Origin: Candidatus Binataceae bacterium
GTDB taxonomy: Bacteria; Desulfobacterota; Binatia; Binatales; Binataceae
Direction: 5' to 3'
NCBI GenBank assembly: GCA_036495685.1
Contig: DASXMJ010000023.1
Coordinates: 77,020 to 141,019 of the forward strand
DNA length: 64,000 nucleotides
Shown here: piece after piece, positions 2,227 to 63,131 of the stretch
Layout of the letters: every line of letters begins with the position of its first letter
Numbering within the stretch: the stretch's first letter is position 1
Position numbers and translations under genes: made by a program
Notes under the pieces: model-generated
What the model saw: only the letters and a program-made list of their open reading frames with translations
Told to the model about the DNA's origin: nothing
Databases searched by the model: none

Positions 2227-4671
2227 CTACGGCTCCGAGTAAGCCGCTTTGTACTGCTCGTGCAGTTTCTCTTGGGCGGCCGCAGCCTCATCCGCGGTAT
2301 TATAAGGGCCGATTCGCACCGCATACTGCGTCTCTCCGTTTATAGTTCTGGTTTTCTCGCACGCTTTGTACCCGAGCCCCGCGATGCGCCCGACCATCGC
2401 GTCCGCTTCGCTCTTCTCGCTTACCGCACTCACCTCAATGTTGTAGCGGTGAGGCGTCGGCACGCATTGTGATGGAGCTGGGCCAGTGGATGGCGCGCTT
2501 TCAGTCGCGGACTCCTCATCCCCGGAAGCAGCCTCCGAGGAAATGATCGTCGTTTTCGATCGCGGGAGCGATGGCGCCGGCTCATTGCGTCTTTCAGTCG
2601 ATGCCATTTTCCCATGTTTTGGCGTGTTCGGTTTCACCACCATTGGCGGTGCAGGTTCGGCTGGGCCTCTGGATTCGGGCATGCTCTCGGGCGGCCGCGG
2701 CGGAATCGCCTTGCTCGCCTGGACCGGCGCCACGGTTGGCTGCGTCGCATTTTCTTCTCGGTAACGCTTCCAGCGGTCAATTCCGGAGGAAAGCGCGAGC
2801 AGCAACACAACGACCAAGCCTATCCGCAATCTCCCACGGCGGCGACACAGACCCCGCGTGCTACGGCGACCATCGTCACGGGGTGAAGGCTCGCGAGCTT
2901 CGCCGAAAACGAATTGCTCCCGCTCGAGACCTCGCTCTCTCCCACGAGCTTCAGGCGCGGCCCGGGGAATCGGAGGGGGCTCACGCCGGGGACCCGTCGC
3001 GGTGTCGGACGGCAACTCGATAACTTTACTGGGCTGCTCAGAAGCCGCCGCCCACAGCACCGCGAAAACGCGATGCGAACCGCTAAGTCCCTTGAGGTTC
3101 AGATCCCGACCACCATCAAAGCGAATATCGCCGGCGCTCTCGGTCATCGCCTTGAAGGTCGCCGACACTAGGATCTGTGCACCGCTGGCGGCGGCGCCGA
3201 TTCGCGCCGCCAGGACCACCGTTTTTCCGAAAAAGTCACCCGCCTCGCGGATCGCCTCGCCGGTGTTGAGACCGATGCGCACCCGCAGGGGTGCCTCGGG
3301 ATGCTGCTTCGAGTACGTTGCCAGCCATCGCTGGATCTCCACCGCGCACAGCAACGCGCGGCGCGCACTCGAAAACGCAACCATGAAACCATCACCCATG
3401 GTTTTAACTTCGTAGCCGCCCTCCTTGGCGACCTGCTCGCGAACCGCACGATTGTGGATTTGAAAGACCTCCTGCGCGCGCAGATCGCCGAGCTTCTCGA
3501 TGATCAGGGTGGAGTTCTCGATGTCCGAAAACATGATGCTCACGGTTCCATCAGGAGCCGCGTGGCCGCTCAGATTCGGCCGCTCCACCATCACGGTCGA
3601 TGCCATCTGGTCCATCGCCCCACGCGAGGAGCCGGCGATGGTGTGCAGCGTCTCTCGGACCATCGCTGCACTCAGGGGCCGCTCCGCCGGGGTCTTCGCG
3701 AGCAGTTTCAGCACCAGAGCATCAAGCGCCGGCGAGATGCCCGGAGCATGCTTTGAGGGCACTTCCGGTACCGCGTTGACGTGCTGCGAGATAATGGCCA
3801 TCAGATCGTCGCCGATGAACGGCGGACGACCGGTGAGCAATTCGTAGATCAGCGCGCCCAGTGAATAGAGATCGCTTCGCGGCTCGAGCGCGCGCCCCAC
3901 CGCCTGCTCAGGCGACATATAGGCAGCCGTCCCGACCATCATCCCATGCGACGTAATGCGCGATTGATCGGGTGCAATCGCAAGGCCGAAATCACCGAGC
4001 AGCGGCGTACCGTCGCCGGAAAGAAACACATTGGCGGGCTTGATGTCGCGATGGACGATGCCGAGCGAATGCGCATATTCAACTCCAAGACACAGCTGTT
4101 CGGCGATTCGAATGGTATCGGTGACCGGCAAACGATGACCGGGTGCGTGGCGCAGCAAATCGCTGAGCGAACCCCCAGGCACATATTGGCTGACGATGTA
4201 GGGGCGGCCCTGCTCCGCTTCGCCGATGTCGTAGATGCCGACGATATGCGGGTGGTCGCCGAGGCGGCCCATCGCGCGTGCCTCGCGCAGAACTCGCGCG
4301 CGGCCCGCGTCGTCCAGCCCCTCGACCCGAAACAAGGCAACCGCCACATCGCGATCCAAGGTCTCGTCGTGGGCGAGGTAGACGACCTTGCTGCCGCCCT
4401 CGCCCAGGATCCGACGCACGCGATAGCGCCCGCCGGCGATCGACTCCACCTGGGGCTGGGCCGCGGCGGAGGGTGGGCCCGCGGTACCCACCCCAGAGCC
4501 TAACGACGAATTGGAGCGCGCGGAAAGCGACTTACCGCATCTACCGCAGAACTTCTCATCGGCGCGGTTGCTGGCGCCGCATACGGAGCAGGCAACTTCG
4601 AGCGCCGCCCCGCATTGGCCACAGAAACTACGCCCCTCGGCGTTAGCGCTGCCACAGGACCCACACAGCAC
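2227..4671 (-). CDS. multidomain signalling protein: double zinc ribbon - Ser/Thr protein kinase - class III adenylyl/guanylyl cyclase - TM helix - SPOR domain
   Basis: 814 aa. The N-terminus has two CxxC...CxxC ribbons. Kinase motifs are present: GEGGSKVVY, HRDIKPAN, DFG, SPE. The cyclase domain carries FSDIENST, KTMGDGFMVAF and RIGLNTGEA. A hydrophobic helix LRIGLVVVLLLALSSGI follows. The C-terminal roughly 75 aa match the SPOR pattern (YNIEVSAVSEKSEADAMVGRIAGLGYKA...YAVRIGPYNTADEA). Confidence 0.85.
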   Translation of the reverse strand: MLCGSCGSANAEGRSFCGQCGAALEVACSVCGASNRADEKFCGRCGKSLSARSNSSLGSGVGTAGPPSAAAQPQVESIAGGRYRVRRILGEGGSKVVYLAHDETLDRDVAVALFRVEGLDDAGRARVLREARAMGRLGDHPHIVGIYDIGEAEQGRPYIVSQYVPGGSLSDLLRHAPGHRLPVTDTIRIAEQLCLGVEYAHSLGIVHRDIKPANVFLSGDGTPLLGDFGLAIAPDQSRITSHGMMVGTAAYMSPEQAVGRALEPRSDLYSLGALIYELLTGRPPFIGDDLMAIISQHVNAVPEVPSKHAPGISPALDALVLKLLAKTPAERPLSAAMVRETLHTIAGSSRGAMDQMASTVMVERPNLSGHAAPDGTVSIMFSDIENSTLIIEKLGDLRAQEVFQIHNRAVREQVAKEGGYEVKTMGDGFMVAFSSARRALLCAVEIQRWLATYSKQHPEAPLRVRIGLNTGEAIREAGDFFGKTVVLAARIGAAASGAQILVSATFKAMTESAGDIRFDGGRDLNLKGLSGSHRVFAVLWAAASEQPSKVIELPSDTATGPRREPPPIPRAAPEARGRERGLEREQFVFGEAREPSPRDDGRRSTRGLCRRRGRLRIGLVVVLLLALSSGIDRWKRYREENATQPTVAPVQASKAIPPRPPESMPESRGPAEPAPPMVVKPNTPKHGKMASTERRNEPAPSLPRSKTTIISSEAASGDEESATESAPSTGPAPSQCVPTPHRYNIEVSAVSEKSEADAMVGRIAGLGYKACEKTRTINGETQYAVRIGPYNTADEAAAAQEKLHEQYKAAYSEP

Positions 4672-8395: not shown

Positions 8396-9952
8396 CTAGG
8401 GGCGCATTGTCCGCGTCCTTGGACCCAGCTGGGTGGGGACTATCTCGTAGGCCTGATGGACCCAGTCCACGAGCAACGGGCGGGTATCGCGTGGATCGAT
8501 AATCTCTTCGATTCCAAATGAGTCCGCAGTCCGAATCGGTGAACGAATCGCATTGAATTTTTCTTCCAGTTCGCGCCGGAGTTTTTCGGGATCGCTCGCA
8601 GCTGCCAGATCGCGTTTGTAGGCCGCCTCGATTCCACCCTCAATCGGCAGCGAGCCCCAGTCCGCGGATGGCCATGCGTATCGCAGGTTTAGCCCAGTCG
8701 TAATGCCGTGACCGGCACCCGCCACCCCAAAGGCGCGGCGCACCATGATCGCGACTTTGGGCGTGATGGTCTGGAACATCGCGTAAAGCGCGCGCACGCC
8801 GCGACGGATGGTTCCGGAACTTTCCGCTTCGCGGCCGATCAGAAAGCCCGGTTGATCGACGAAATTGACGATCGGCAGATGGAACGTGTCGCAGAGGTCG
8901 AGGAACTTCGCCATCTTGTCCGATGCGGGTCCATCCAGCGAACCACCGATCGCGTAGGGATCGTTCGCCATCACCGCCACACCGTAACCATCGAGCCGCG
9001 CGAACCCGGTTATCAACGATGGGCCGAAAAACGGCGTCATTTCGAAAAAGGAATCGCGATCCATGACCAGCTCAAGGATTCGCCGTGCATCGTAGCCGTG
9101 GCGGCGGTTGCGCGGAATCAGCGAAATCAGTTCCTCCTCCCGGCGATGGGGGTCGTCACTCGGTGTGACGCGCGGCGGCATTTGCCACACGCTTTGCGGC
9201 AGATAAGAGAGGAAGCGTCGGATCTGCTCGAAGGCCTCCTCTTCGCTCTCGGCTTCGTTGTCGACTGCGCCGCTCGTATGCGCATGGATCTCCGAACCGC
9301 CGAGTTCCTCCTTGGTCAGGTCCTCGCCCACGCCCCATTTGACGACGGGTGGTCCCGCCACGAAGAGCTGACTGGTACCTTTGACCATTACCGCAAAATG
9401 CGTCGCTGCAACCCGCGCCGCGCCGATTCCCGCGACCGAGCCCATGCAACCCGCGACCACCGGCACCTCGCCCATCAGCTGCACGAGAACGTCGAAATCC
9501 GGATTTGCAGGCACGTAGGTACGTCGCGTGGTTTCAAAGGTCTTCACGCTGCCGCCGCCCCCGGTCCCGTCGACCAGCCGGATGATCGGGATGTGCAGTT
9601 CGTGCGCGAGCAGCTCCGCATAGCTGTGCTTGTTGCCAATCGAGGCATCGGCGGCGCCGCCGCGTACCGTGAAGTCGTCGCCACCCACCGCGACCCGTCG
9701 GCCGTTAATGCGGCCAGTCCCACCCACGAAGTTCGCGGGCCGGAACTCGACCAGCTTGTCGCCGTCGTATTTCGTCATTCCGGCAATCGCGCCGTATTCG
9801 TGGAACGAACCTTTGTCGAGCAGCCGATCGAGACGTTCGCGCACCGTCAGCTTACCGCCATCGTGCTGGCGCTTGATATTCTCGACGCCGCCCATCTGCT
9901 TGGCTAACTGCTCGCGGCGGCGAATTTCATCGATCTCGGGCTGCCAGGACAT
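8396..9952 (-). CDS. acyl-CoA carboxylase carboxyltransferase subunit (PccB/MmdA family)
   Basis: The N-terminus (MSWQPEIDEIRRREQLAKQMGG...KRQHDGGKLTVRERLDRLLD) and overall length match propionyl-CoA carboxylase beta / methylmalonyl-CoA decarboxylase alpha. The ATG at 9952 has a GGAGGGAG RBS 6 nt upstream. Confidence 0.85.
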   Translation of the reverse strand: MSWQPEIDEIRRREQLAKQMGGVENIKRQHDGGKLTVRERLDRLLDKGSFHEYGAIAGMTKYDGDKLVEFRPANFVGGTGRINGRRVAVGGDDFTVRGGAADASIGNKHSYAELLAHELHIPIIRLVDGTGGGGSVKTFETTRRTYVPANPDFDVLVQLMGEVPVVAGCMGSVAGIGAARVAATHFAVMVKGTSQLFVAGPPVVKWGVGEDLTKEELGGSEIHAHTSGAVDNEAESEEEAFEQIRRFLSYLPQSVWQMPPRVTPSDDPHRREEELISLIPRNRRHGYDARRILELVMDRDSFFEMTPFFGPSLITGFARLDGYGVAVMANDPYAIGGSLDGPASDKMAKFLDLCDTFHLPIVNFVDQPGFLIGREAESSGTIRRGVRALYAMFQTITPKVAIMVRRAFGVAGAGHGITTGLNLRYAWPSADWGSLPIEGGIEAAYKRDLAAASDPEKLRRELEEKFNAIRSPIRTADSFGIEEIIDPRDTRPLLVDWVHQAYEIVPTQLGPRTRTMRP

Positions 9953-10133
9953 ACTCGTCTCCCTCCGCAATCCTCCGATCCTAGCGCCTTTGCCCTCTCG
10001 CTGTCAGGGAGAGGACCCGAGGAGAGTCCAGCCGCAAGCGCGGCTCTTTCGCCCGCGCTTCAGCAGGGCGCGGCGAGTTTCCCGTCGCGGGAGAGGTAAT
10101 CGATCTGTTACCTTCTACGCCGTGACCACTCCG

Positions 10134-11489
10134 ATGCCGCCCGCGAAGCGCGCCGCCCTTACCGGATGGGGCCGCTACCCGAGTGCCGCGAGTGATATTT
10201 TCCGACCCGAAAAACTCGCCGAGCTTGCGGCGATCGTCAGCAGCAATGCGACTTCTCTCATCGCGCGTGGAGCGGGTCGCGCCTACGGCGATGCGGCCCT
10301 GAATCACGACCAACGGGTCGTTGATGTACAGCGGCTCAACCGCATGCTGGCATTCGACCCCGACAGTGGGTTGCTCCGATGTGAGGCCGGCGTAACGCTC
10401 GCGGCAATAATCGAGGTCTTCCTGCGACGCGGTTTTTTCCCGCCGGTGGTTCCGGGAACCCAGTTTGTCACGCTGGGCGGTTCGGTCGCCGCCGATATCC
10501 ACGGCAAGAGCCACCACCGCGATTCGTCTCTGGCCACCCACGTCACCTGTATCGAGCTGATGCTCGCATCGGGCGAAGTGAAACGCTGCTCGCGCGAGGA
10601 AAATCCTGACCTTTTCTGGGCGACGGTGGGAGGAATGGGGCTCACGGGCGTCATCCTCGAGGTCGAGCTGCGCCTGCGTCGCGTGGAGAGCGCGTGGTTC
10701 GATGGCGAAATCGCGATAGCGGCCAACCTCGACGAAGCCATCGAGACCTTCGAGCGCACCGAACGACAATATGGATACTCTGTCGCCTGGATCGATTGCG
10801 CCGGGACGCGCGGCTCACTAGGCCGCTCGGTCATCAACCTTGGCAACGTCGCCTCTCGCGAGGCGCTCGCTCCTCCGCTCCGCCAGCAGCCGCTTCGGAT
10901 TCCGTCCCGATTCGCTCCCACGGTGCCCTTCAATCTGCCCAACTTCACGTTGAGCTCGCTCGGCATCAAGACCTTCAACGCCGCGATCTATGCGATGAAC
11001 CGCAAAGGCCCGCGCCTGTTCGACTACCAGAGCTTTTTTTTTCCGCTCGATTTCATCCGCCACTGGAACCGCATCTACGGCCAGCGCGGGTTCGTTCAGT
11101 ACCAGTGCGTATGGCCAGCCAACGAAAGCCGCGAGGGCCTGATCGAGATGCTCGAAGCGATCAGCAAATGGGGCGGCGGGTCCTTCCTGACGGTACTCAA
11201 GAAATTCGGCCCCCAGGACGGGATGCTTTCCTTTCCGATGCCCGGCTACACACTCGCGTTGGATTTTCCGGTGAGCAAAGGGCTGATGGAATTTCTCGAC
11301 CGACTGGATGCCATGGTCCTCAAGCGCGCCGGCCGCGTGTACCTGGCCAAAGATGCGCGCCTCAAACCGGAGATGTTCAGTGCAATGTATCCAAACCTCG
11401 CGCGGTGGCAACAAGTCAAACGCGCGGCCGATCCCAACAACCGGTTCTCGTCAAACCTCGCGCGCAGGGTCGGCCTGCTGCCATCGTAG
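10134..11489 (+). CDS. dprE1: decaprenylphosphoryl-beta-D-ribose 2'-oxidase (DprE1), FAD-dependent
   Basis: Near-motif-for-motif match to mycobacterial DprE1: LTGWGR, GRAYGD, VPGTQFVTLGG, DIHGKSHH, LFWATVGGMGLTGVI, FGPQDGMLSFPMPGYTLALDFP, RVYLAKDAR, LARRVGLL. The track ORF N-terminal extension overlaps the upstream gene and is rejected. Confidence 0.85.
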   Translation: MPPAKRAALTGWGRYPSAASDIFRPEKLAELAAIVSSNATSLIARGAGRAYGDAALNHDQRVVDVQRLNRMLAFDPDSGLLRCEAGVTLAAIIEVFLRRGFFPPVVPGTQFVTLGGSVAADIHGKSHHRDSSLATHVTCIELMLASGEVKRCSREENPDLFWATVGGMGLTGVILEVELRLRRVESAWFDGEIAIAANLDEAIETFERTERQYGYSVAWIDCAGTRGSLGRSVINLGNVASREALAPPLRQQPLRIPSRFAPTVPFNLPNFTLSSLGIKTFNAAIYAMNRKGPRLFDYQSFFFPLDFIRHWNRIYGQRGFVQYQCVWPANESREGLIEMLEAISKWGGGSFLTVLKKFGPQDGMLSFPMPGYTLALDFPVSKGLMEFLDRLDAMVLKRAGRVYLAKDARLKPEMFSAMYPNLARWQQVKRAADPNNRFSSNLARRVGLLPS

Positions 11490-11888
11490 TTCGATGAATG
11501 TGCGACCCAACCCGGTCCCCAGGCGGGAAGCGGGATCCGTAGGCAATGCAGTCACGATCAGTGCCGCGATTTTCTCGGCGGCGTCGATTTCACTCGCACT
11601 TCGAACCACGCCGCACGCCAGATCCCTCCGGCGGCCCGGATGCGAAACGACTTTCTCCCCGATGGGGAAACGGTCGCGCCCCACCTACGGGACCGGAGAG
11701 ACAACGATTCAGAGACCTCGGGGCTCCCTTTCCAAAGCAAGACGGCGCCAGAACATCACGCATCGATGCACGGGCACGGATGCCCCCGCCGCAATCTTTT
11801 TGGCGGCAATGCGGTCTTGGAGGCCAGCGCACTCACCAGCGGAGCGCGAGGACTTTCGCCTGCCCACACGGACGAACCGAACGGTGCG

Positions 11889-12623
11889 ATGTCTAAGATC
11901 CTGATCCTCGGCGCGACCAGCCCTATCGCGCGCGCTCTCGCGATGCGCTTCGCGGCGGAGGGCAATTCGGTTTTTCTCGCAGCCCGCGACCGGGTAGAGG
12001 CCGAGCGATTGGCCGCCGATATCACCATCCGAACCGGGGCAGCAGCGATTCCGGGGGTTTTCGACGCGGCCGAATTGTACTTTCATGCGACGTTCTTTGA
12101 AAAGACCCTAGCAGCATTGGGCGGCCTCGATGGTGTTATCCTCTGCTTCGGCACTCTGGGCGACGAAACGACAGCGCAGACCAGCCCCGACGAAGCGGTC
12201 GCAACCGTGAACCAGAATTTCACCGGCGCCGTGAGCCTGTTGACACTCGCCGCCCGCCACCTGGAGCAGCAGCGCAGCGGCTTCATCGTCGTGATCGGCT
12301 CGGTCGCGGGCGAGCGCGGGCGCGCAAAGAACTACGTATACGGCTCCGCCAAAGGCGCCCTGGCGATATTCGCCCAGGGCCTGCGGGCACGGATGGCGCG
12401 CGCCGGGGTGCAGGTTCTGACAGTCAAGCTCGGCACTGTCGACACTCGCATGACCTGGGGTCGCGACAGTCGGCTCGTAATGGCTCCAGAAGCCGCCGCT
12501 GACAAGATCATCGCCGCCTGGCGCCGCAAGGCCGAGGTGGTCTACGTGCCATGGTTGTGGCGGCCGATTATGGGAGTAGTCAGGATGATCCCCGAGCGCA
12601 TCTTCAAGCGCACAACTTTTTAG
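11889..12623 (+). CDS. dprE2: decaprenylphospho-2'-keto-ribose reductase (DprE2), SDR family
   Basis: The Rossmann N-terminus ILILGATSPIARA, AGERGRAKNYVYGSAKGALA, VLTVKLGTVDTRM and a C-terminal RMIPERIFK match Rv3791-like DprE2. Confidence 0.8.
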   Translation: MSKILILGATSPIARALAMRFAAEGNSVFLAARDRVEAERLAADITIRTGAAAIPGVFDAAELYFHATFFEKTLAALGGLDGVILCFGTLGDETTAQTSPDEAVATVNQNFTGAVSLLTLAARHLEQQRSGFIVVIGSVAGERGRAKNYVYGSAKGALAIFAQGLRARMARAGVQVLTVKLGTVDTRMTWGRDSRLVMAPEAAADKIIAAWRRKAEVVYVPWLWRPIMGVVRMIPERIFKRTTF

Positions 12624-22094: not shown

Positions 22095-23159
22095 ATGTTG
22101 TACGCCGGAATAGATTACCACAAACGATACTCGCAGGTGCACGTCATCGACGAGCAGGGGCGAACCCGAGTCACGGCACGACTGGCGAACGACTTAGCCA
22201 GCCTGCGGGGGTTTTTCGGTAAGTTGGCGGAGCCGTGTCGGGCGGTGGTTGAAGCGGGCTGGAACTGGGGCGTGATGTACGACTGGCTGGACGCAATCGA
22301 GAACGTGGCCGAGGTCGAGCTGGCGCATCCATATCGAGTCCGCGCGATCGCGGCGGCCCAGGTCAAGACCGATTCGATCGATGCGCACACCCTGGCGCAG
22401 CTGCTGCGGGTCAATCTGATCCCGCGCGCCTATGTACCAGGAGTGGAGACCCGACGGCTGCGCGAGCTGGTGCGCCAACGGGTGTTCCTGGTGCGGATGC
22501 GGACGATGGTGAAGAACCGCGTCCAGGCGCTGCTCGCACGCCAGCATGTGCCGCTGCCGGCGGTGAGCGATATTTTCGGCAAGCGCGGACGGGACTACTT
22601 GAGTAAGCTTAAGCTCGAAGGCGCGACACAGGAGCTCTTGCGCCAGGATCTCGAGTTGCTCGAGACCCTCACGGAGGAAGTGCGCGCGACCGAAAAGTGG
22701 CTGCACCAAGCGACCCAGAGCGATCAGCGGGTGGGAGCATTGCGTACCATTCCGGGGCTCGGCGAACTTCTAGCGACCGTGGTGGCGTTGGAGATCGACC
22801 GGATTGAGCGCTTTGAGACTCCCGCCAAACTCGCCGCCTACGCCGGACTGGTGCCGACCACCCATTCCTCCGGCGGGCACACTTTCCACGGCAAGCTGAT
22901 GCCGCAGAGCAACAAGTGGCTGCGCTGGGCGCTGGTGGAAGCGGCCTGGGTGGCGGTCAGACTCGATCCTTACTTCCGGGCGCACTTCGCCAAGCGCCGC
23001 GCGCACAAACCAGCCCAAAGCGCGATCATCGCGACCGCGCGCCGACTGCTGGAGGTGGTGTGGCATGTGCTCAAAGAAAATCGCCCCTATCAGAGCCGGC
23101 CAGTAACCGGTCCGAATCGAGCGTTAAACACTTCCTCGGCTGCCTTCGTCGCACCCTAG
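22095..23159 (+). CDS. IS110 family transposase
   Basis: 354 aa. It has the N-terminal DEDD-type motif YAGIDYHK and a C-terminal IS116/IS110/IS902-type domain. Confidence 0.9.
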   Translation: MLYAGIDYHKRYSQVHVIDEQGRTRVTARLANDLASLRGFFGKLAEPCRAVVEAGWNWGVMYDWLDAIENVAEVELAHPYRVRAIAAAQVKTDSIDAHTLAQLLRVNLIPRAYVPGVETRRLRELVRQRVFLVRMRTMVKNRVQALLARQHVPLPAVSDIFGKRGRDYLSKLKLEGATQELLRQDLELLETLTEEVRATEKWLHQATQSDQRVGALRTIPGLGELLATVVALEIDRIERFETPAKLAAYAGLVPTTHSSGGHTFHGKLMPQSNKWLRWALVEAAWVAVRLDPYFRAHFAKRRAHKPAQSAIIATARRLLEVVWHVLKENRPYQSRPVTGPNRALNTSSAAFVAP

Positions 23160-30542: not shown

Positions 30543-30860
30543 CTCCCGATTGCGGCGCGCGATGACCCGCGCTGTCTGGCACCCCCACACAATCAGAGAA
30601 GGGTGTGGTTTCCCTTCCCGTCTCGGGAAGCAGAAAGAATTTTCTCGTCATCGCCTGTCCTTCGAGAGGGACTTCCCTCATGAATGCCGAGTTGACCGTG
30701 TACCGCAAATCAGTGCCGCGAGACTTGGATTTCCTTCGCAGCCTGCGTTTTCTTCGGTGCCGAACAGACGACGTGCAAACCTACCAGAGAGGAACTTTTC
30801 CGACCACCACATTTACTCGAATAGCTTGAGCGACGGCGCAACGCTCGCTGCTGCTGAACC

Positions 30861-31307
30861 CTAGGCCGCTTCGGGCGGAGCGAAAACGGTAAGCCCGAAG
30901 AGCGGTTCGCTATCCGTGCGAAGAGTGTGCATCGCGCCGGCCGGAATAGTCAGGATGTCGCCCGCTTTGATCTGCTGTTCATTGCCCGCGACACGTGCAG
31001 TCGCCGACCCCTCAAGCACATAGATGATCTGGTCACCACGATGGCTGTTCTCGCGATCGCTGTGGAAGTTCGCCGGGATCGTGAAGGTCATCGTCTCGCT
31101 CTGCGCAGTCCGCCGCAGGCGCTTGCCGCGCGCCTTCGTGCCGTCACCACGAAACGCCATCAGGTTGGAGATGTTAAGCGGATTCTCGAGTGCGCCGCCG
31201 GTCGACGTGGTCAGTTCATTCATTTGTTGCTCGAAGACCGCCTCGGAAATGATCCCCTTGCGATAAGCCCTCAGCAATTGGGTGAAGACAAAATCCTTGC
31301 TCGCCAT
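30861..31307 (-). CDS. cupin domain protein
   Basis: The C-terminal cupin motif reads HSDRENSHRGDQIIYVLEGSATARVAGNEQQIKAGDILTIPAGAMH. The start is set at MASKDF. Confidence 0.6.
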   Translation of the reverse strand: MASKDFVFTQLLRAYRKGIISEAVFEQQMNELTTSTGGALENPLNISNLMAFRGDGTKARGKRLRRTAQSETMTFTIPANFHSDRENSHRGDQIIYVLEGSATARVAGNEQQIKAGDILTIPAGAMHTLRTDSEPLFGLTVFAPPEAA

Positions 31308-31472
31308 AGCCTTGGCTCCTCTGCGAAGCTTACAGGAAAAGATCTGACTAAGCGGACCGTAGCACATGCCGGACGCGGCGGTAAAAGCGGACGAGGCGAG
31401 GTTGCGCCGCAGCAGAGCCTATTTGCGAGTGGATCAAGGGCAGAAGATTCGCGATCCGGGTACAGAAGGTCG

Positions 31473-32360
31473 CTATCTTTCGGTTCGGTTCTTGAGCCCC
31501 TCCTGGTAAACCTCCCGCCGACTGCGACCGGTCAGCCTCGCGACAATTGCGCTCGCCTGCTTCAGGCTGACTCCCTCTTCCAGCAGCATGTCCACAGTGA
31601 CCGCTTGACCGTGGCCCGCGGCCGCGCCGTCGGCCGCGCCCGCGACGACGATCGTGATCTCACCGAGCGGATTGGTGTTCTCGAATCTAGCCGCCAGCTC
31701 ACCGAGCGAACCGCGCAGCGTTTCTTCGTAGGTCTTGGTGGTCTCGCGCATCACCGCGGCTTCGCGCTCATTGCCGAAGATCGAAGCCATTGTCGCCAGG
31801 GTCCCACCAAGCCGGCGCGCGGCCTCGTAGAAGATCATGGTACGCGGTTCGCCGGAGAGCCCCTCAAGCTCCTTGCGCAACGCGCCCTCGCGCGTGGGGA
31901 GAAATCCCTCGAACACGAATCGATCGGTGGGCAGACCGGCGATCGACAAGGCAGCGATTGCCGCCGATGGGCCTGGAATCGCCTTCACGACTATCGCCGC
32001 ATCGAGCGCCGCGCGAACCAGGCGATAGCCCGGATCTGAAATCGCCGGCGTGCCAGCATCGCTCACCAGCGCTATGCGCGCGCCTTGCCTGAGTCGCGCA
32101 ACCAAGTCGGGCACGCGTCGTTGCTCGTTGTGCTCGTAATGCGAGAGCAGTTGCTTGCGGAGGCCGTGCGCGGCGAGAAACTGCCCCGTCCGGCGCGTAT
32201 CCTCGCATGCGATCAAATCGACTCCTTCCAGCACCTGCAAGGCGCGGGCGCTGATATCGCCGGGGTTACCGATCGGCGTTGCGACCACGTACAGGACCCC
32301 GGGCGAATTTGCGCTGCTGCTCAAAACCGCACCGGAGTTGGGTCGTTTGTCCGGGGACAA
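31473..32360 (-). CDS. rsmI: 16S rRNA (cytidine1402-2'-O)-methyltransferase
   Basis: LYVVATPIGNPGDISARALQVLEGVDLIACEDTRRTGQ is the classic RsmI N-terminus. Confidence 0.85.
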   Translation of the reverse strand: MSPDKRPNSGAVLSSSANSPGVLYVVATPIGNPGDISARALQVLEGVDLIACEDTRRTGQFLAAHGLRKQLLSHYEHNEQRRVPDLVARLRQGARIALVSDAGTPAISDPGYRLVRAALDAAIVVKAIPGPSAAIAALSIAGLPTDRFVFEGFLPTREGALRKELEGLSGEPRTMIFYEAARRLGGTLATMASIFGNEREAAVMRETTKTYEETLRGSLGELAARFENTNPLGEITIVVAGAADGAAAGHGQAVTVDMLLEEGVSLKQASAIVARLTGRSRREVYQEGLKNRTER

Positions 32361-35624: not shown

Positions 35625-36248
35625 TTAGTCTCGAGCTCTGGCCTCACCTCCGGCCATTTCTTCCCAGCGGCGAACGTACGCGATTCCCTGTTCGTAGCGA
35701 GTCACGACAACTTCCGTGCCGCGCGCGAGGGCCTCGCCCTTCTCGCTGCGAGCGCCACAGGTATGGCGCGTGCCCGCCTGGGAAAAGATGATCTCGCCGG
35801 TGCCACCCGGGCCGACCGGGCTGACAATGCGTGCGAGCACCCCGACCCGATCGTAGTCCGCGGGATCCAGTTCCCGGTCATGCGCGAGCAGCAGCTTGAC
35901 GACGAACCAGAAGATGATGGCTGCGCCCACGGTTCCGGCTCCGCCGGCGAACAACAGAATCAGCAGCGCGGCCAGCGGCGAATGCTCGGTCAGCAGGTAA
36001 CCGGTGGCGCCAAACCAGGCCAGGAACACGGTTATCGTCCCCAGGTTGAAGACCGGTAAAGAACCGCGAGCGCTGCCGGCATCGGGCGCATGCGCATCGG
36101 GTAGCGCGGCATGCCCATGAAACCAACGCACGAAGTGAAGGTGCGGGAAGTGAAAGTGCGTCAGGTGCAGACCGCCGAATACAAACGCAATCACGCTCAG
36201 CGCGGTCCCGACGAAAAAACACACCAGGTAGAAAGTCGCCCAGGTCAT
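35625..36248 (-). CDS. NfeD-like membrane protein (flotillin partner, YuaF-like) with a C-terminal OB fold
   Basis: An N-terminal multi-TM region and a C-terminal soluble beta-domain (GTEVVVTRYEQGIAYVRRWEE). It sits immediately upstream of flotillin, as in yuaF-floT. Confidence 0.65.
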   Translation of the reverse strand: MTWATFYLVCFFVGTALSVIAFVFGGLHLTHFHFPHLHFVRWFHGHAALPDAHAPDAGSARGSLPVFNLGTITVFLAWFGATGYLLTEHSPLAALLILLFAGGAGTVGAAIIFWFVVKLLLAHDRELDPADYDRVGVLARIVSPVGPGGTGEIIFSQAGTRHTCGARSEKGEALARGTEVVVTRYEQGIAYVRRWEEMAGGEARARD

Positions 36249-36769
36249 GGACGGACCCCGACGGATTTTCGGTTTGCGGCTTTGCTGAGCGGGTGCGCAC
36301 CGAGATCTGGTTTCAGCACTTCGCTCAGGCGTTCGACCAGTTGCGGCGCGTCCAGAACCGCGCCCAGCAGGATCAAACACTTGCGCGTGTCATCGTGCCG
36401 AGCCACCCGCAGCAGCGCGTCGCTCACCTCCGGGTCAGAAGCGAATTGCTCCGCCCCCTCGATGAGCCAGAGGTCGAGGCGATCGCGCATGGCGCGCAGG
36501 TCACTGGTCAGCTCGGTGTGGTAGCCCTCCGGGTCGTCGACCAGATACCCGGGATGAACCTTGAAAAAACGGGCCAGCAGCATGCGCGAGGCATTGGTCA
36601 TATGCGGGCGAGTGCCGCTTTCGATTTGCGACAGATAGGATTGGCTGAGCCCCGCGCCCACTTCCTTCTTAAGCGCGCGGGCGAGATCCTGCTGGGTCAT
36701 CTCGCGGCCCATGCCGCGCAGGGTCCCTTCGACCAGGCGCAGATAGCGCAACTTCTCGCTCAGCTTCAT
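36245..36769 (-). CDS. XRE-family HTH transcriptional regulator
   Basis: HTH_3 motif MTQQDLARALKKEVGAGLSQSYLSQIESGTR. The start is set at MKLSEKL. It overlaps the NfeD start by 4 nt. Confidence 0.7.
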   Translation of the reverse strand: MKLSEKLRYLRLVEGTLRGMGREMTQQDLARALKKEVGAGLSQSYLSQIESGTRPHMTNASRMLLARFFKVHPGYLVDDPEGYHTELTSDLRAMRDRLDLWLIEGAEQFASDPEVSDALLRVARHDDTRKCLILLGAVLDAPQLVERLSEVLKPDLGAHPLSKAANRKSVGVRP

Positions 36770-49152: not shown

Positions 49153-50910
49153 CTATCTAGCGATTCCACGGTCGCTCTTCAAACCCGACGCCGGCTCAAT
49201 CAGATAGAGCGCCGGAGGACCTTCCCCGCCTGAAATATTTGACCTCTCTACCAGTCGTAGGCGCCCTCGATAGGAGTCCGGCAGCATAGCCAGGTCCCTG
49301 TCTCGAGCGATCAGGTACCCTCCGGAAGGAGTGGCAGGTTCCTTCCTGATAGCCGGGGGAAGGCCTCTCCCCAAGACCAGCGGCGGTACCAGTGCCCCAT
49401 AGTAGAAGGCCAGGTCGAAATCGGCATCATGGACCACAAACAGCGGATGACCATCGATCCGTTCGCGAACCTGCGCAACGAAGCTCTTGTAACTGCGCGA
49501 CCTCGCAAGCTCGGGTCGGACGAAAGTGTCGATCAGAACGACGCCCGCAAAGCTGATCACGCCGATCATTGCGCCGACCAGAAATGTCGAGCGTCGAACT
49601 AAAAATACGAACGCAGCTACCGCAGCCACCGCAGAAATGCCTAGAAGGATCATGAACGGCGGGCTCCGGGTCGCGATGCCGCGTTCCAGAATCGTCATCA
49701 GCGCCGCATCGCTCGATTGTAGCGTCAGCGGCGGATTCCTCGTGGCAGTCGCGAGAGCCAGCGGGACCGCCAGCAGCGCTGCGAACCCTATCAGCGCGCT
49801 TACCCCGTCGCGAATCTTTGCGCCTCCCGGGTAGCCGCCCGTCGGCTGCTTCATGCCGAAAGCAGCTGCGGACAAAATCGCAACTCCCGGCAGAGCGGGT
49901 AGAATGTAGTCGTCGCGCTTGGCGCTGGCGACCGAGAACACAATCACGACAGCAGCGACCAGGCTCGCCTGGAAGACCAGGGGCCTGCGCTGCGGGTTCG
50001 ATACTTCTCCGGTTGCAAAGCCTGCCAGGGTTGCGGGCATCAACAAAATCAACGGGTTAGCCTGGCCGATGAGACGCGCCGTGATGTACCAGAACGGCCG
50101 CGAGGCTTCACCGGTACCGCCCAGACTGGCAGGAGCGAAATGCCCGAAGTTCTCATGTAGAAAAATGCGCACTTCGTGGGATCCTCCGATGATCAGATAT
50201 GGCGCGTACCAAAGAAAGCCGATCGTCGCCGCGATGACGAAAATCTGCCAGGGCCATGCGCTACGCAGTAGCGGCCGCACATGGTCACGCTCGAATGCAA
50301 CAAACAGCAATCCTGCGCATGCCGCGAGGATCAGGACCACCGGCCCCTTGGTTACGACACCGAGTCCGAGTAGTGCTCCGGTTGCGTAAATACGCGCGCT
50401 TGATGCTCTGCCCCCGAACATCGGGTACGCGACGAGCCAGGCACTCATCAGGAGCGCCACCATTAACATGTCGGTCAGGGCCAGAGTCGCCCGCGAGGAA
50501 AATCCGTAGATGCCGAGAATGAACATTAACGCCAGCCACCCCTCAGCGACGCCAATCTCGGATGCCGTCCACCCCAGGACTTCCACCGCGATGACCGTCG
50601 CGGCAACCACCGAGACGATGCGCGCACGGGTCTCATCGACCGTGCCGCCGGTGGCCTTGCTGATCAGTGCGGAAAGCCAGTAATAGAGCGGCGGTTTGCG
50701 ATCTACGAAGCCGTAGTAGTCGCGCGGGTTGAACCAATTGCCGTCGCGAACCACGCTTACGATCCATTCCGCGGATTGCGGTTCGGCGTCCTTCTGAAAC
50801 GGCGCACTGATCCCCTGCGTCAGAACCAAAAAGGCCAAGATGGCAGCGGCGACCAGGTGGATTGTCGGCACACCGCGAGCGGCGACTAGCGGCCCGTCAC
50901 CCTGGGTCAT
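49153..50910 (-). CDS. GT-C fold glycosyltransferase, ArnT/PMT-like (GT83/GT39 family)
   Basis: A polytopic N-terminal half with a loop DRKPPLYYW and GLGVVTKGPVVLILA (compare ArnT YFEKPIAGYW / GMGVMTKGFLALAVP). It has a soluble C-terminal periplasmic domain. Its start overlaps the asparaginase stop by 4 nt. Confidence 0.65.
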   Translation of the reverse strand: MTQGDGPLVAARGVPTIHLVAAAILAFLVLTQGISAPFQKDAEPQSAEWIVSVVRDGNWFNPRDYYGFVDRKPPLYYWLSALISKATGGTVDETRARIVSVVAATVIAVEVLGWTASEIGVAEGWLALMFILGIYGFSSRATLALTDMLMVALLMSAWLVAYPMFGGRASSARIYATGALLGLGVVTKGPVVLILAACAGLLFVAFERDHVRPLLRSAWPWQIFVIAATIGFLWYAPYLIIGGSHEVRIFLHENFGHFAPASLGGTGEASRPFWYITARLIGQANPLILLMPATLAGFATGEVSNPQRRPLVFQASLVAAVVIVFSVASAKRDDYILPALPGVAILSAAAFGMKQPTGGYPGGAKIRDGVSALIGFAALLAVPLALATATRNPPLTLQSSDAALMTILERGIATRSPPFMILLGISAVAAVAAFVFLVRRSTFLVGAMIGVISFAGVVLIDTFVRPELARSRSYKSFVAQVRERIDGHPLFVVHDADFDLAFYYGALVPPLVLGRGLPPAIRKEPATPSGGYLIARDRDLAMLPDSYRGRLRLVERSNISGGEGPPALYLIEPASGLKSDRGIAR

Positions 50911-51848
50911 GATGTTCTTGCCAGCCTCAGCGGCTCGACCCAACAGTGCCGCAGCTCAGCCGAGTCGAAGGTCGCGACCTGCATGGCGGCGGCGTTATGC
51001 GCAAATCCGATCCGTCCCTTGCGGTCCACGATGACTATTCCACCTTCCGCTCTTGCCGGCTCGAGCAGGGTGGCGACCGCGCGGTGAGCAACGGACGATG
51101 GAGACTGCCCCGAAAGTGCAGCGACCGCCTCCCGGCAGAGTCCGGCCAGGATAATCGCCTCGCCGTGTCCGGTCGCTGAGGCCCCTCCTCGAGCCGACAC
51201 AAAGGTTCCCGCGCCAACTATGGCGGAATCGCCGACGCGACCGGGAATTTTGCCCGGAATTCCGCCAGTTGAAGTCCCCGCAGCGATATTGCCATTTGAG
51301 TCGATCGCCACGGCGCCCACCGTGCTGGGCGCGGCTGCGCTCGAGCCTTGGTTGCGAAGTTGGAACTGCCGCGCACGCCAGCGCTCGCGTGCGCGAGCAG
51401 TGATCAGATCCTCGACACGACACAACTCGATCCCGGCGCGCCGGGCGAATCGATGCGCCCCGCTGCCGGCGAGCATCACATGAGGTGTCTCCTCCATTAC
51501 CGCCCGCGCCAACATCAACGGGTTCTTGACCCGACTCACGGCGGCAACCGCGCCCGCCGATATCCGCGCCTTCCCGCGTTCCATGACCATGACGGACGCA
51601 TCCATCTCTACGGTTCCGACGCTGGTGAGAACCGAGCCGGTTCCCGCGTTGAACCGCGGATCGTCCTCTAGCTCCACCACCGTCACCTGCACGGCATCGA
51701 GGGCACTCCCACCTTCTCGGAGCAGCTCGGCGCCGCGTCGAACCGCCGCGAGCAGCGCATGTCGGCGCTCCGCTCGTTCCGCGGCCGGTCCTTTCGCACC
51801 CGCACCTCCATGTGCAATCAGTGCAGGCGATATACGCCGAAGCGTCAT
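50907..51848 (-). CDS. isoaspartyl peptidase / L-asparaginase (Ntn hydrolase, plant-type)
   Basis: IAHGGAG at the N-terminus, the autoproteolytic site GAVAIDSNGNIAAGTSTGG, and HGEAII. The start is set at MTLRRIS. Confidence 0.8.
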   Translation of the reverse strand: MTLRRISPALIAHGGAGAKGPAAERAERRHALLAAVRRGAELLREGGSALDAVQVTVVELEDDPRFNAGTGSVLTSVGTVEMDASVMVMERGKARISAGAVAAVSRVKNPLMLARAVMEETPHVMLAGSGAHRFARRAGIELCRVEDLITARARERWRARQFQLRNQGSSAAAPSTVGAVAIDSNGNIAAGTSTGGIPGKIPGRVGDSAIVGAGTFVSARGGASATGHGEAIILAGLCREAVAALSGQSPSSVAHRAVATLLEPARAEGGIVIVDRKGRIGFAHNAAAMQVATFDSAELRHCWVEPLRLARTS

Positions 51849-60490: not shown

Positions 60491-62101
60491 CTAATCCGGA
60501 TCGAGCAGCACGCCCGGGTTTAGAATTCCCTTCGGATCCAGTGCGCGCTTGGCCGCCTTCAGCGCGCGCGCAAATCCCTCGGGACGCTGCTGGTCGTACC
60601 ACGGCCGATGGTCCCGACCGACCGCGTGATGATGGGTGATCGTTCCGCCGAGCTTGATCAGTTGTTCAGACACCGCCGCCTTTATTTCGTCCCATTGCTC
60701 CATCTCCGAACCGCGCCGGCCGGGCGCCAAAATCGTGTAATAGGGGGCGGGACCGTCCGGGTACACGTGAGTGAATCGGCAGGTCACGGTTCCCATGCCA
60801 CATACCCGTTTCACCGCGTCAGTCGCGCATTGGGTCATCTGACGATGGAACTCCGGAAACCGCTCCCAGGTAATCGCGGTTTCAAACGTGTCGCTAACCA
60901 TCCCCATCGCGACCACGGTGTCACGCAGATAGGGCGCGTTGAGGAATGCATTGCGCCACGCGCCAGCCGCGCCTTCATGGGTCGCATTTTCGTCGCTGCG
61001 AGTCTTACCTGTATCGGCAGGAAGGCGCCCACCATGATCGGCGCAACATTCCAGCGCCCGCTTGATCCACGGGTCGAGCGGATGGTCGGCCGACTCGAAG
61101 GCCAGCACCAGCACGGCCTCGTTCTGCTCGGTGGCTCCCGCGTTGAATGCCTCGCCCGGATCGAGCAGTCGGCAATTGGCCGGATAGATCCCGGACTGCG
61201 CGATCTGGCGCACCGCATCCGCGGCGGAAAGGAAATCATCGAAAGGCACCGATGCCCCGGCACGGAAGGTCGGCCGGTTCTGCACACGCATCCACGCCTC
61301 AGTAATGACCCCCAGAATTCCTTCCGAACCGATGAACATCCGGTCCGGGCTGGGACCAGCGCCGGAACCCGGCAGTCGCCGCGATTCAACTACCCCGGTC
61401 GGCGTGACCACGCGGACCGACTCCACGAAGTCATCAATGTGTGTGTACAGAGTCGCGAAGTGGCCACCCGAGCGGGTCGCGATCCATCCACCTAGCGAGG
61501 AAAATTCAAACGACTGCGGAAAATGGCGGATGGTGTAGCCGTGCGGGCGAAGCTGATCGTCCAGCGCCGGGCCAAGCACGCCAGCCTGAATACGGGCCGC
61601 ACGCGAAACCTTATCGACTTCGAGCACGCGGTCCAGATGCTTGAGATCGATGGAAACCGCGCCGCGATAGCGATCACCCGCGGGCGGCTCGACTCCCCCA
61701 ACCACGCTGGAGCCGCCGCCAAACGGCGCAGCGGCGAGGTTTGCAGTGTCACACCATTCCAGCACCCGGACCAGCTGGGCCTCATCGCGAGGATAGGCGA
61801 CCACGTCGAAAGGATTAGGAAAGTACCTGCGGAACGCGCGCACCACGTCGCGAAAGCTGCTTCCATAACTGTGCAGGGCACGATCATAGGTGGCGCTCGT
61901 GCAGATTGATGCGAGAGCGTCGGGCGGTGCTATCCGGGGCGGTCGCAGGTTGAGCTCGCTCTCCTTGGGCGGCGGCGTAATCTCCAGCGGACCCAGGGCG
62001 AAGCGCTTTTCCATCCGCTCCGCCATATGCCGCTGTTGCTCGAGGTTGGGCCCCTGGTCCTCGTAGCCCCATCCCCAGAATTTACGTCTGCGCTCGGCCA
62101 T
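60491..62101 (-). CDS. FAD-linked oxidase, alkyldihydroxyacetonephosphate synthase (AGPS)-like
   Basis: The N-terminal KFWGWGY (compare AGPS WNGWGY), the FAD-binding [12 protein letters not shown] (compare PIGGGTSV), and a C-terminal [11 protein letters not shown]. The start is set at MAERRRKF, internal to the track ORF. Confidence 0.8.
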
Positions 62102-62249
62102 GTTCTCCGCTCTCCTGTTTCTGACGGTGGGATTCTCCCCGGTCGCTCGGGCGAGCGCAAATCCGCCCGGACGCGGAATCCTCGGGTTGTGTGATCTCGC
62201 CGGAGGTCGTATTTCTCGACTGACTACCCGCAGCGAGGTTTCAGCCCCC

Positions 62250-63131
62250 ATGAGCGAGGAAACTGTCTCATCCGCCGATCCGCATCCCCGCCACAGATTC
62301 GAACTGCTGGGCACGTGGATGTCCTATGCAGACGTCGGCGCAGGGGATCCGATAGTGTTTCTGCACGGCAATCCAACTTCGTCCTATCTGTGGCGCAATG
62401 TCATTCCCCACCTGAAACCCCTTGCACGCTGTATCGCTCCGGATTTGATCGGGATGGGCGCTTCAGGTGCGTCGGCCACCGGGAGCTATCGATTCGCGGA
62501 CCATTCGCGCCACCTCGATGCGTTCCTGGAGGGCGTCGTCCCGAGTGGCCCGCTCACGCTGGTGGTACATGACTGGGGCTCGGCCTTGGGTTTCGCTTGG
62601 GCGCGACGCCATCCCGAACGGATCAAGGGAATTGCTTACATGGAAGCGATCGTGCGTCCGCTCATCTGGGCGGAGTGGTCGGAACGCGCTGTCGGGATTT
62701 TCAAGGCCCTGCGCAGCCCGGCCGGTGACGATATGATCTTGCTCAACAACGTATTCGTCGAACGCATTCTGCCCGGCAGCGTGATCCGCAAGCTCACCCC
62801 CGAAGAGATGGATAACTATCGACGGCCGTTCCGCGATGCCGGCGAATCACGCCGGCCGACGCTGCAATGGCCCCGCGAAATTCCCATCGACGGTGAACCA
62901 GCCGACGTCGTCGCAATCGTGAAGAGCTACTCGGATTGGCTCACGCAAAGCCCGGTGCCCAAGCTGTTCATCAACGCGAATCCCGGTGCGATCCTGGTCG
63001 GAGCGCAGCGTGAGTTCTGCCGCAAATGGCCGAATCAAAGCGAAGTGACGGTCAACGGAGTGCATTTCATCCAGGAAGATTCGCCGCACGAAATCGGCCG
63101 CGCGACCGCGGATTGGTATCGCGAACTGTGA
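62250..63131 (+). CDS. haloalkane dehalogenase, HLD-II subfamily (LinB/DhaA-like)
   Basis: Colinear with LinB: [30 protein letters not shown] (nucleophile Asp plus halide-binding Trp), YMEAIV (catalytic Glu), [10 protein letters not shown] (catalytic His), [13 protein letters not shown]. The start is set at MSEETVSS. Confidence 0.85.

Follow-up and report, generated by a model that had tools for sequence, protein, structure and literature searches.

The oxidoreductases DprE1 and DprE2, best known from Mycobacterium tuberculosis (Mtb), are commonly assumed to mark cell envelopes of the Corynebacteriales type, an assumption that the occurrence data presented below correct. In the Gram-negative bacterium Pseudomonas aeruginosa Pa5196, DprE1 and DprE2 are needed for arabinosylation of the pilin, and the DprE1 of that strain is 33% identical to the Mtb protein (bioRxiv 10.1101/2020.04.19.049825). 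Homologues of both enzymes accompany glycans containing arabinofuranose (Araf) in Gram-negative bacteria, and in the model for the three-component systems that build O-antigen pentofuranoses, undecaprenyl-phospho-ribofuranose is derived from phosphoribosyl pyrophosphate, is optionally epimerized by DprE1/E2 where Araf is present, and serves a C-type glycosyltransferase (GT-C) for transfer in the periplasm (PMC11127046). Here we describe a homologous gene pair in a 64,000-nucleotide stretch, hereafter the window, from a Candidatus Binataceae bacterium of the Binatota (assembly GCA_036495685.1, contig DASXMJ010000023.1, positions 77,020 to 141,019). The pair consists of a dprE1-like gene (10134..11489, + strand) and a dprE2-like gene (11889..12623, + strand).

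Together, the encoded proteins are predicted to act as a polyprenyl-phospho-ribofuranose 2'-epimerase that would yield lipid-linked D-arabinofuranose as a donor for glycosylation in the periplasm. We assign this reading a probability of roughly 0.7 on the basis of the homology of both proteins, the conservation of catalytic residues, the conserved pairing of the genes, and the purifying selection acting on them.

Identification of the DprE1 and DprE2 homologues

The dprE1-like gene starts with an ATG at 10134 and stops at 11487-11489, and it encodes a 451-amino acid homologue of the flavin adenine dinucleotide (FAD)-dependent polyprenyl-phospho-beta-D-ribofuranose 2'-oxidase, in which Pfam recognises FAD_binding_4 and a C-terminus of the ALO type. 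The NCBIfam equivalog model for DprE1 (NF053785) aligns with the protein over profile positions 2-449 of 449 at 455.2 bits, and the next family scores 77 bits. When the Protein Data Bank (PDB) was searched with HMMER, the DprE1 structures of M. smegmatis and M. tuberculosis matched residues 6-449 with an E-value of 1e-94, compared with only 2e-11 for the best FAD oxidase structure that is not a DprE1. Identity to Mtb DprE1 is 37.7% across 454 columns, which is higher than that of the experimentally validated P. aeruginosa enzyme. In an alignment of 81 family sequences (the window protein, those of 78 loci, two from plasmids, and Mtb DprE1), the equivalents of Mtb Y60, H132, K134, Q334, Q336, K367, and K418 are all kept in the window protein (7/7), and these positions are essentially invariant across the aligned sequences. 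The catalytic Lys, K418 in Mtb, corresponds to Lys406.

The dprE2-like gene runs from an ATG at 11889 to a stop at 12621-12623 and encodes a 244-amino acid short-chain dehydrogenase/reductase (SDR; Pfam PF00106, adh_short) that is homologous to polyprenyl-phospho-2-keto-erythro-pentofuranose 2-reductase. From the N-terminus (MSKILILGATS) onward, the protein keeps the glycine-rich nucleotide-binding segment (GATSPIA), the catalytic YxxxK of SDRs (Y151-G-S-A-K155), and a C-terminal segment, IPERIFKR, that aligns with IPRSIFRK of Mtb. The closest solved relative is Mtb DprE2 itself (21gq_C, chain C of a DprE1-DprE2 entry), which matches residues 3-241 with an E-value of 1.5e-27 and is 32% identical; the next SDR in the PDB reaches 9e-14. 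The protein also just clears an unnamed SDR model, PRK07102 (268.9 bits against a cutoff of 267).

Pfam alone would describe the two products as a FAD_binding_4/ALO protein and an adh_short protein, and NCBI labels their relatives as 'FAD-binding oxidoreductase' and 'SDR family oxidoreductase', so that a generic FAD-linked oxidase and a generic short-chain dehydrogenase with unrelated functions might have become neighbours by chance. The gaps in E-value between the Dpr structures and the next-best structures (1e-94 vs 2e-11, and 1.5e-27 vs 9e-14), the retention of the pairing in nearly all of 80 loci across phyla, and the fusion of the two proteins in five clusters (described below) make such a coincidence extremely improbable, and we regard this explanation as effectively refuted. 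The identification of the proteins as members of the DprE1 and DprE2 lineages, made in a first-pass annotation from the DNA letters and predicted reading frames, is thus upheld.

A longer dprE1 open reading frame (ORF) beginning at 9630 was discarded as an artefact, since it runs into the carboxyltransferase gene at 8396-9970, which is transcribed divergently. The window contains a second FAD_binding_4 oxidase at 60491-62314 (- strand), which is of the GlcD/FAD-oxidase_C type and is not a DprE1 paralogue.

Conservation and inheritance of the pair in Binataceae

The best 120 database relatives of the DprE1-like protein are 66-95% identical to it and all derive from soil or sediment metagenomes or metagenome-assembled genomes (MAGs); where organism names are given, these are exclusively Candidatus Binataceae or Candidatus Binatus. 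When one genome of each GTDB species was scanned, approximately 48 Binatota loci with a DprE1 were identified (62-96% identity), the closest being JBKPEA010000100.1 (96%) and JAFAHS010000062.1 (94%). The labels 'Deltaproteobacteria' and 'uncultured delta proteobacterium' are frequent among these loci. By neighbour joining, the Binatota DprE1 sequences form one clade that stands apart from the actinobacterial, proteobacterial, and Bacteroidota branches. The host is thus a member of the Binataceae, a lineage of the Gram-negative type, and not an actinobacterium.

A dprE1 gene followed by a dprE2 gene, in that order, was found in the window and in nearly all sufficiently long loci among 80 examined from several phyla. 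Within Binatota, the pair is embedded in a conserved block with the order MFS transporter, carboxyltransferase, dprE1-dprE2, amidohydrolase, 2-oxoacid:ferredoxin oxidoreductase, acylphosphatase, and LigA. Each of the neighbours tested is kept in 25-29 of the 33 Binatota loci with full flanks; the acylphosphatase was not among the queries and is known from the annotation of relatives' loci. The ratio of nonsynonymous to synonymous substitution rates (dN/dS) relative to four relatives is 0.07-0.10 for the dprE1-like gene and 0.06-0.16 for the dprE2-like gene. Given the single Binatota clade and the conserved synteny, the pair is a vertically inherited core unit of the Binataceae under purifying selection (dN/dS about 0.1), and it is neither a mobile or strain-variable cassette nor part of a variable glycan island.

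Since the pair is fixed across Binataceae at one syntenic housekeeping position, it may feed a core, lineage-wide envelope polymer with D-arabinofuranose in an uncultured phylum of the Gram-negative type or, if these bacteria truly lack the phosphoribosyltransferase discussed below, may represent epimerase chemistry recruited to a new substrate. We raise this two-sided proposal tentatively and consider it unlikely.

The syntenic block shows local variation. In some Candidatus Binatus loci (L005, 8694-9824, and L004, 8695-9102), a homologue of pentameric ligand-gated ion channels (Neur_chan_LBD and Neur_chan_memb) lies between the carboxyltransferase gene and dprE1; it is not present in the window, where the gap between these two genes is 163 bp. 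An IS110-family transposase (DEDD_Tnp_IS110 and Transposase_20) is encoded at 22095-23159 (+ strand) of the window, and a similar transposase breaks the block in L005 (18772-19722).

Occurrence outside mycobacteria

The first-pass annotation had described the pair as unusual outside Corynebacterineae, a view that did not survive the database searches. Searching 1.84 billion cluster representatives with HMMER resulted in 1,916 clusters of DprE1-like proteins (50% identity) at E<=1e-30. All of the 150 matches listed score at least 332 bits; for comparison, Mtb DprE1 scored 320 bits in the PDB search. Homologous pairs are carried by 65 plasmids, from Rhizobium, Sinorhizobium, Cereibacter, Salipiger, Agrobacterium, a cyanobacterium, and Bacteroidota, and are found in genomes of Myxococcota, Acidobacteriota, Actinospica, Nanopelagicales, and Solirubrobacterales; non-mycolate Actinomycetota are among the carriers. 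Added to the proven Gram-negative cases cited above, this distribution makes the Binataceae pair a further member of a known and very widespread kind.

Natural fusions of DprE1 to an SDR (632-698 amino acids) occur in five cluster representatives (P0364, P0418, P0432, P0455, and P0464), and a fusion of UbiA to DprE1 (799 amino acids) occurs in one (P0431). The fusions provide Rosetta-stone support for a three-enzyme pathway outside Actinobacteria.

Proposed pathway and its partners

In the proposed pathway, the FAD enzyme (10134-11489) would oxidize the 2'-OH of polyprenyl-phospho-beta-D-ribofuranose to a 2'-keto intermediate, which the NAD(P)H-dependent SDR (11889-12623) would reduce from the opposite face to give polyprenyl-phospho-beta-D-arabinofuranose. 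The product would then be flipped across the inner membrane, where a GT-C glycosyltransferase would place D-Araf on an envelope glycan or glycoprotein. We infer the substrate, the acceptor, and the existence, at another place in the genome, of a gene for the upstream phosphoribosyltransferase. By analogy with what has been proposed for Gram-negative systems, the lipid carrier is probably undecaprenyl rather than decaprenyl. The decaprenyl carrier and arabinan-containing envelope suggested by the first-pass annotation are extrapolations for a Binataceae host of the Gram-negative type.

The genomic context of DprE1 was examined for the enzyme that would supply the substrate. Directly upstream of DprE1, 21 non-Binatota loci encode a polyprenyl-phosphate phosphoribosyltransferase (PPPRS) of the UbiA family. 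These loci come from Actinospica, Nanopelagicales, Solirubrobacterales, a Myxococcales MAG, a Thermoanaerobaculia MAG, a Rhizobium plasmid, and a Flammeovirgaceae plasmid, and their UbiA genes are assigned, by annotation or score, to decaprenyl-phosphate phosphoribosyltransferase or PRK08238; the Rhizobium plasmid adds a GtrA gene. The 21 PPPRS sequences were used, by tblastn and as a hidden Markov model, to search six-frame ORFs from the window and from all 87 loci.

Several results weigh against the epimerase reading. A UbiA-type phosphoribosyltransferase was detected neither in the 64-kb window nor in the 10 kb on either side of the pair in the 48 Binatota loci, even at E<=10. The same regions of the window and of the 48 Binatota genomes likewise showed no GtrA or MATE flippase and no linked GT-C. 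Searches with a Myxococcales PPPRS query and with a profile built from 12 PPPRS sequences each list the best 120 of several thousand matches, and among these no protein could be recognised as coming from Binataceae, although this is not evidence of absence; a cluster look-up of 10 of the PPPRS matches returned only Myxococcales names. Finally, both proteins score below the curated cutoffs of their equivalog models: the DprE1-like protein reaches 455 of the 500 bits required by NF053785, and the DprE2-like protein reaches 175.3 of the 250 bits required by NF053786. The NF053785 cutoff is tuned to actinobacterial sequences, and the window protein is therefore a DprE1-family homologue and not a certified equivalog.

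When every ORF of the window was screened for transmembrane segments and motifs, an MFS transporter, Nuo subunits, and one GT-C were the only polytopic membrane proteins, with no PPPRS among them, and no arabinosyltransferase of the Emb or Aft type was recognised among the large window ORFs scanned. A genomic study of the Binatota is silent, including its supplements, on decaprenyl, arabinose, K14136, K16652, and K16653 (PMC8262859). ORFs of 140-142 amino acids downstream of dprE2 in relatives were considered as GtrA flippases and rejected, as one encodes a soluble protein that looks secreted, its sole hydrophobic segment being at the N-terminus, and the other a DUF1329 fragment; neither is present in the window.

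These observations raise the alternative that the two enzymes perform the same chemistry on a different phospho- or lipid-linked sugar or polyol in Binatota genomes that lack the phosphoribosyltransferase making polyprenyl-phospho-ribose. The contrast between 0 of 48 Binatota loci with a UbiA gene within 10 kb (and none in the window) and the 21 non-Binatota loci that have one would fit this alternative, as would the location of the pair among genes of central metabolism (carboxyltransferase, amidohydrolase, and 2-oxoacid:ferredoxin oxidoreductase) rather than envelope genes, the scores under the equivalog cutoffs, and the separate clade formed by the Binatota sequences. However, the phosphoribosyltransferase is likewise not found within 10 kb of the pair in the Corynebacteriales loci (Gordonia, Tsukamurella, and Prescottella), and some Myxococcales and Bacteroidota DprE1 loci also have none nearby. 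Because the same separation is seen in Corynebacteriales, unlinked pathway partners are not disqualifying. In addition, the substrate- and FAD-contacting residues that were checked are identical to those of other family members outside Corynebacteriales, and the searches of Binatota DNA for the phosphoribosyltransferase covered the window and the locus flanks. On balance, a different substrate is improbable, and we favour epimerization of polyprenyl-phospho-ribofuranose.

The one GT-C of the window (49153-50943, - strand) is predicted to have approximately 11 transmembrane segments in 596 amino acids and is flanked by the nuo operon and an asparaginase gene, 37 kb from the pair. It had been put forward as a possible consumer of the donor, but nothing ties it to the pair: its similarity to known families is weak (PMT, 21.9 bits; ArnT, 47.8 bits against a cutoff of 567), no PDB relative was found by sequence, and no homologue lies beside any of the 80 DprE1 loci. 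It was therefore set aside as a candidate.

If the epimerase reading is correct, production of a lipid-linked D-arabinofuranose donor would be predicted to be conserved throughout Binataceae, an abundant uncultured soil lineage. The value of this prediction is modest and is ecological and glycobiological in nature. The locus also contributes a clade whose epimerase genes lie apart from the other genes of the pathway. We consider it only mildly interesting, because the pair belongs to the conserved core of an uncultured phylum and because of this separation.

Residue at the benzothiazinone-target position

In Mtb DprE1, Cys387 is the site at which benzothiazinones attach covalently, and it determines susceptibility to these drugs, not catalysis. 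The HMMER alignment places the motif TLALDFP (residues 373-379) of the window protein opposite NICVDFP of Mtb, with Ala375 (codon GCG, 11256..11258, + strand) at the position of Cys387. The replacement of Cys by Ala noted in the first-pass annotation is therefore real, but it is not noteworthy, since Ala is the majority state of the family. Among the 81 aligned sequences, 64 have Ala at this position, eight have Thr, seven have Cys, and two have gaps. Cys is limited to sequences of the Corynebacteriales type, namely Mtb, Gordonia, Tsukamurella, Prescottella, and one 'Acidobacteriaceae' contig. By this distribution, Ala is the family default and Cys a peculiarity of Corynebacteriales, so that the Ala of the window protein is not a lineage-specific replacement. 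Two other differences from Mtb, Thr for Asn385 and Phe for Tyr314, are also majority states among the 81 sequences.

The 'Acidobacteriaceae' contig (L087; CAJCHX010000371.1, 'Acidobacteriaceae bacterium BOG_194') encodes a DprE1 with Cys387 that is placed within the Tsukamurella branch, and it looks like a mis-binned Corynebacteriales contig.

DprE1 of M. avium is without Cys387, and the organism is naturally resistant to benzothiazinones (PMC3035642). By analogy, insensitivity of the window enzyme to covalent benzothiazinones and nitro-aromatic inhibitors is a fair prediction. With Ala as the normal state of the family at this site, the finding carries little weight for drug biology.

The spacer between the two genes

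The dprE1-like and dprE2-like genes are separated by 399 bp (11490..11888, + strand), whereas the spacer is approximately 20 bp in most Binatota. Long spacers are also present in L010, the locus of the closest relative (345 bp), and in L015 (144 bp). Alignment of these spacers revealed an insert of approximately 255 nt that is common to the window and L010 and not present in L015. The window spacer has no stop codons in the frame common to both genes, and read-through or a DprE1-DprE2 fusion across it was considered. This was rejected because stops occur in the counterparts in L010 and other relatives, indel lengths are not divisible by three, and the GC content at third codon positions (GC3) has no coding bias. 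The spacer is thus non-coding by comparison, and its stop-free frame appears to be coincidental. Rfam contains no family that matches it, and a second copy was not seen in the sequence data compared, which led us to reject a repeat, a mobile element, or a known RNA, and neither a convincing + strand promoter nor a convincing terminator was found within it. We treat it as a lineage-specific intergenic expansion.

Such a spacer might uncouple dprE2 from dprE1 and leave a decaying or silenced pair in a non-functional pathway, as its length in the window and in the closest relative, compared with most Binatota, and the lack of a clear + strand promoter-like site within it could suggest. Both ORFs are intact, however, all catalytic residues are retained, and dN/dS is approximately 0.09-0.12 relative to L010 and L015, which are both long-spacer loci. 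Decay is accordingly a very remote prospect.

A similar palindrome-rich element, which translates as ...KDPHLRSSP..GEGK..., is found in the dprE1-dprE2 spacers of L016, L019, and L025 (approximately 11360-11590) and in L008 (11354-11475). This element is probably a repeat of the Binatota lineage resembling repetitive extragenic palindromic (REP) sequences.

Other features of the window

A large multidomain protein with a double zinc ribbon, a Ser/Thr protein kinase domain, an adenylate/guanylate cyclase domain, and a C-terminal, peptidoglycan-binding SPOR domain is encoded at 2227-4671 (- strand) and occupies the same place in L002. Two long ORFs, at 30858-32036 (+ strand, 393 codons) and 35628-36389 (- strand, 254 codons, both counted from stop to stop), have no Pfam match. 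The former has a GC3 of 0.62, which is unusually low for the genome, and is possibly not a genuine gene.

Comparison with known systems

The Binataceae pair shares with mycobacterial DprE1/DprE2 the two-protein architecture, the order of the genes, homology along the full length of both proteins (38% and 32% identity), the catalytic residues, the YxxxK motif, and the C-terminal segment. It differs in that the host is not a mycolate actinobacterium, in having Ala, Thr, and Phe at the positions of Mtb Cys387, Asn385, and Tyr314, in its lack of an arabinogalactan or lipoarabinomannan (LAM) gene context, in a carrier that is probably not decaprenyl, and in scoring below the equivalog cutoffs. The arabinogalactan/LAM system of Corynebacteriales has a Mycobacteriales host with Emb/Aft arabinosyltransferases, whereas the host of the window is a Binataceae bacterium.

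The clusters on plasmids of Rhizobium, Cereibacter, and Bacteroidota that encode a HAD-UbiA protein, GtrA, an FAD oxidase, and an SDR (e.g., NZ_CP071401.1 and CP139022.1) resemble the window pair in the DprE1-DprE2 order and in having Ala at the Cys387 position, and their DprE1 proteins are 43-48% identical to that of the window. In these clusters, however, the phosphoribosyltransferase (in Rhizobium together with GtrA) is encoded immediately upstream, whereas the Binatota pair is chromosomal and unlinked. The three-component O-antigen pentofuranose systems, comprising a PPPRS, a flippase, and a GT-C with auxiliary epimerases possible (Citrobacter youngae O1/O2, PMC11127046), reside in variable polysaccharide loci; the Binatota pair is instead located in a housekeeping block that adjoins none (0/3) of these core components.

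The cluster PsPA7_6245-6251 of Pseudomonas (para)aeruginosa Pa5196/PA7 encodes a decaprenylphosphoryl-5-phosphoribose (DPPR) synthase (6246), a GtrA-like protein (6247), DprE1 (6248), and DprE2 (6249), with TfpW as the GT-C. It likewise represents a Gram-negative DprE1/DprE2 pair, and there the pair is genetically required for glycosylation with D-Araf. The Pseudomonas genes are strain-specific and clustered with those for a phosphoribosyltransferase, a phosphatase, and a GtrA-like protein, whereas the Binataceae pair stands alone and is found family-wide at one syntenic position.

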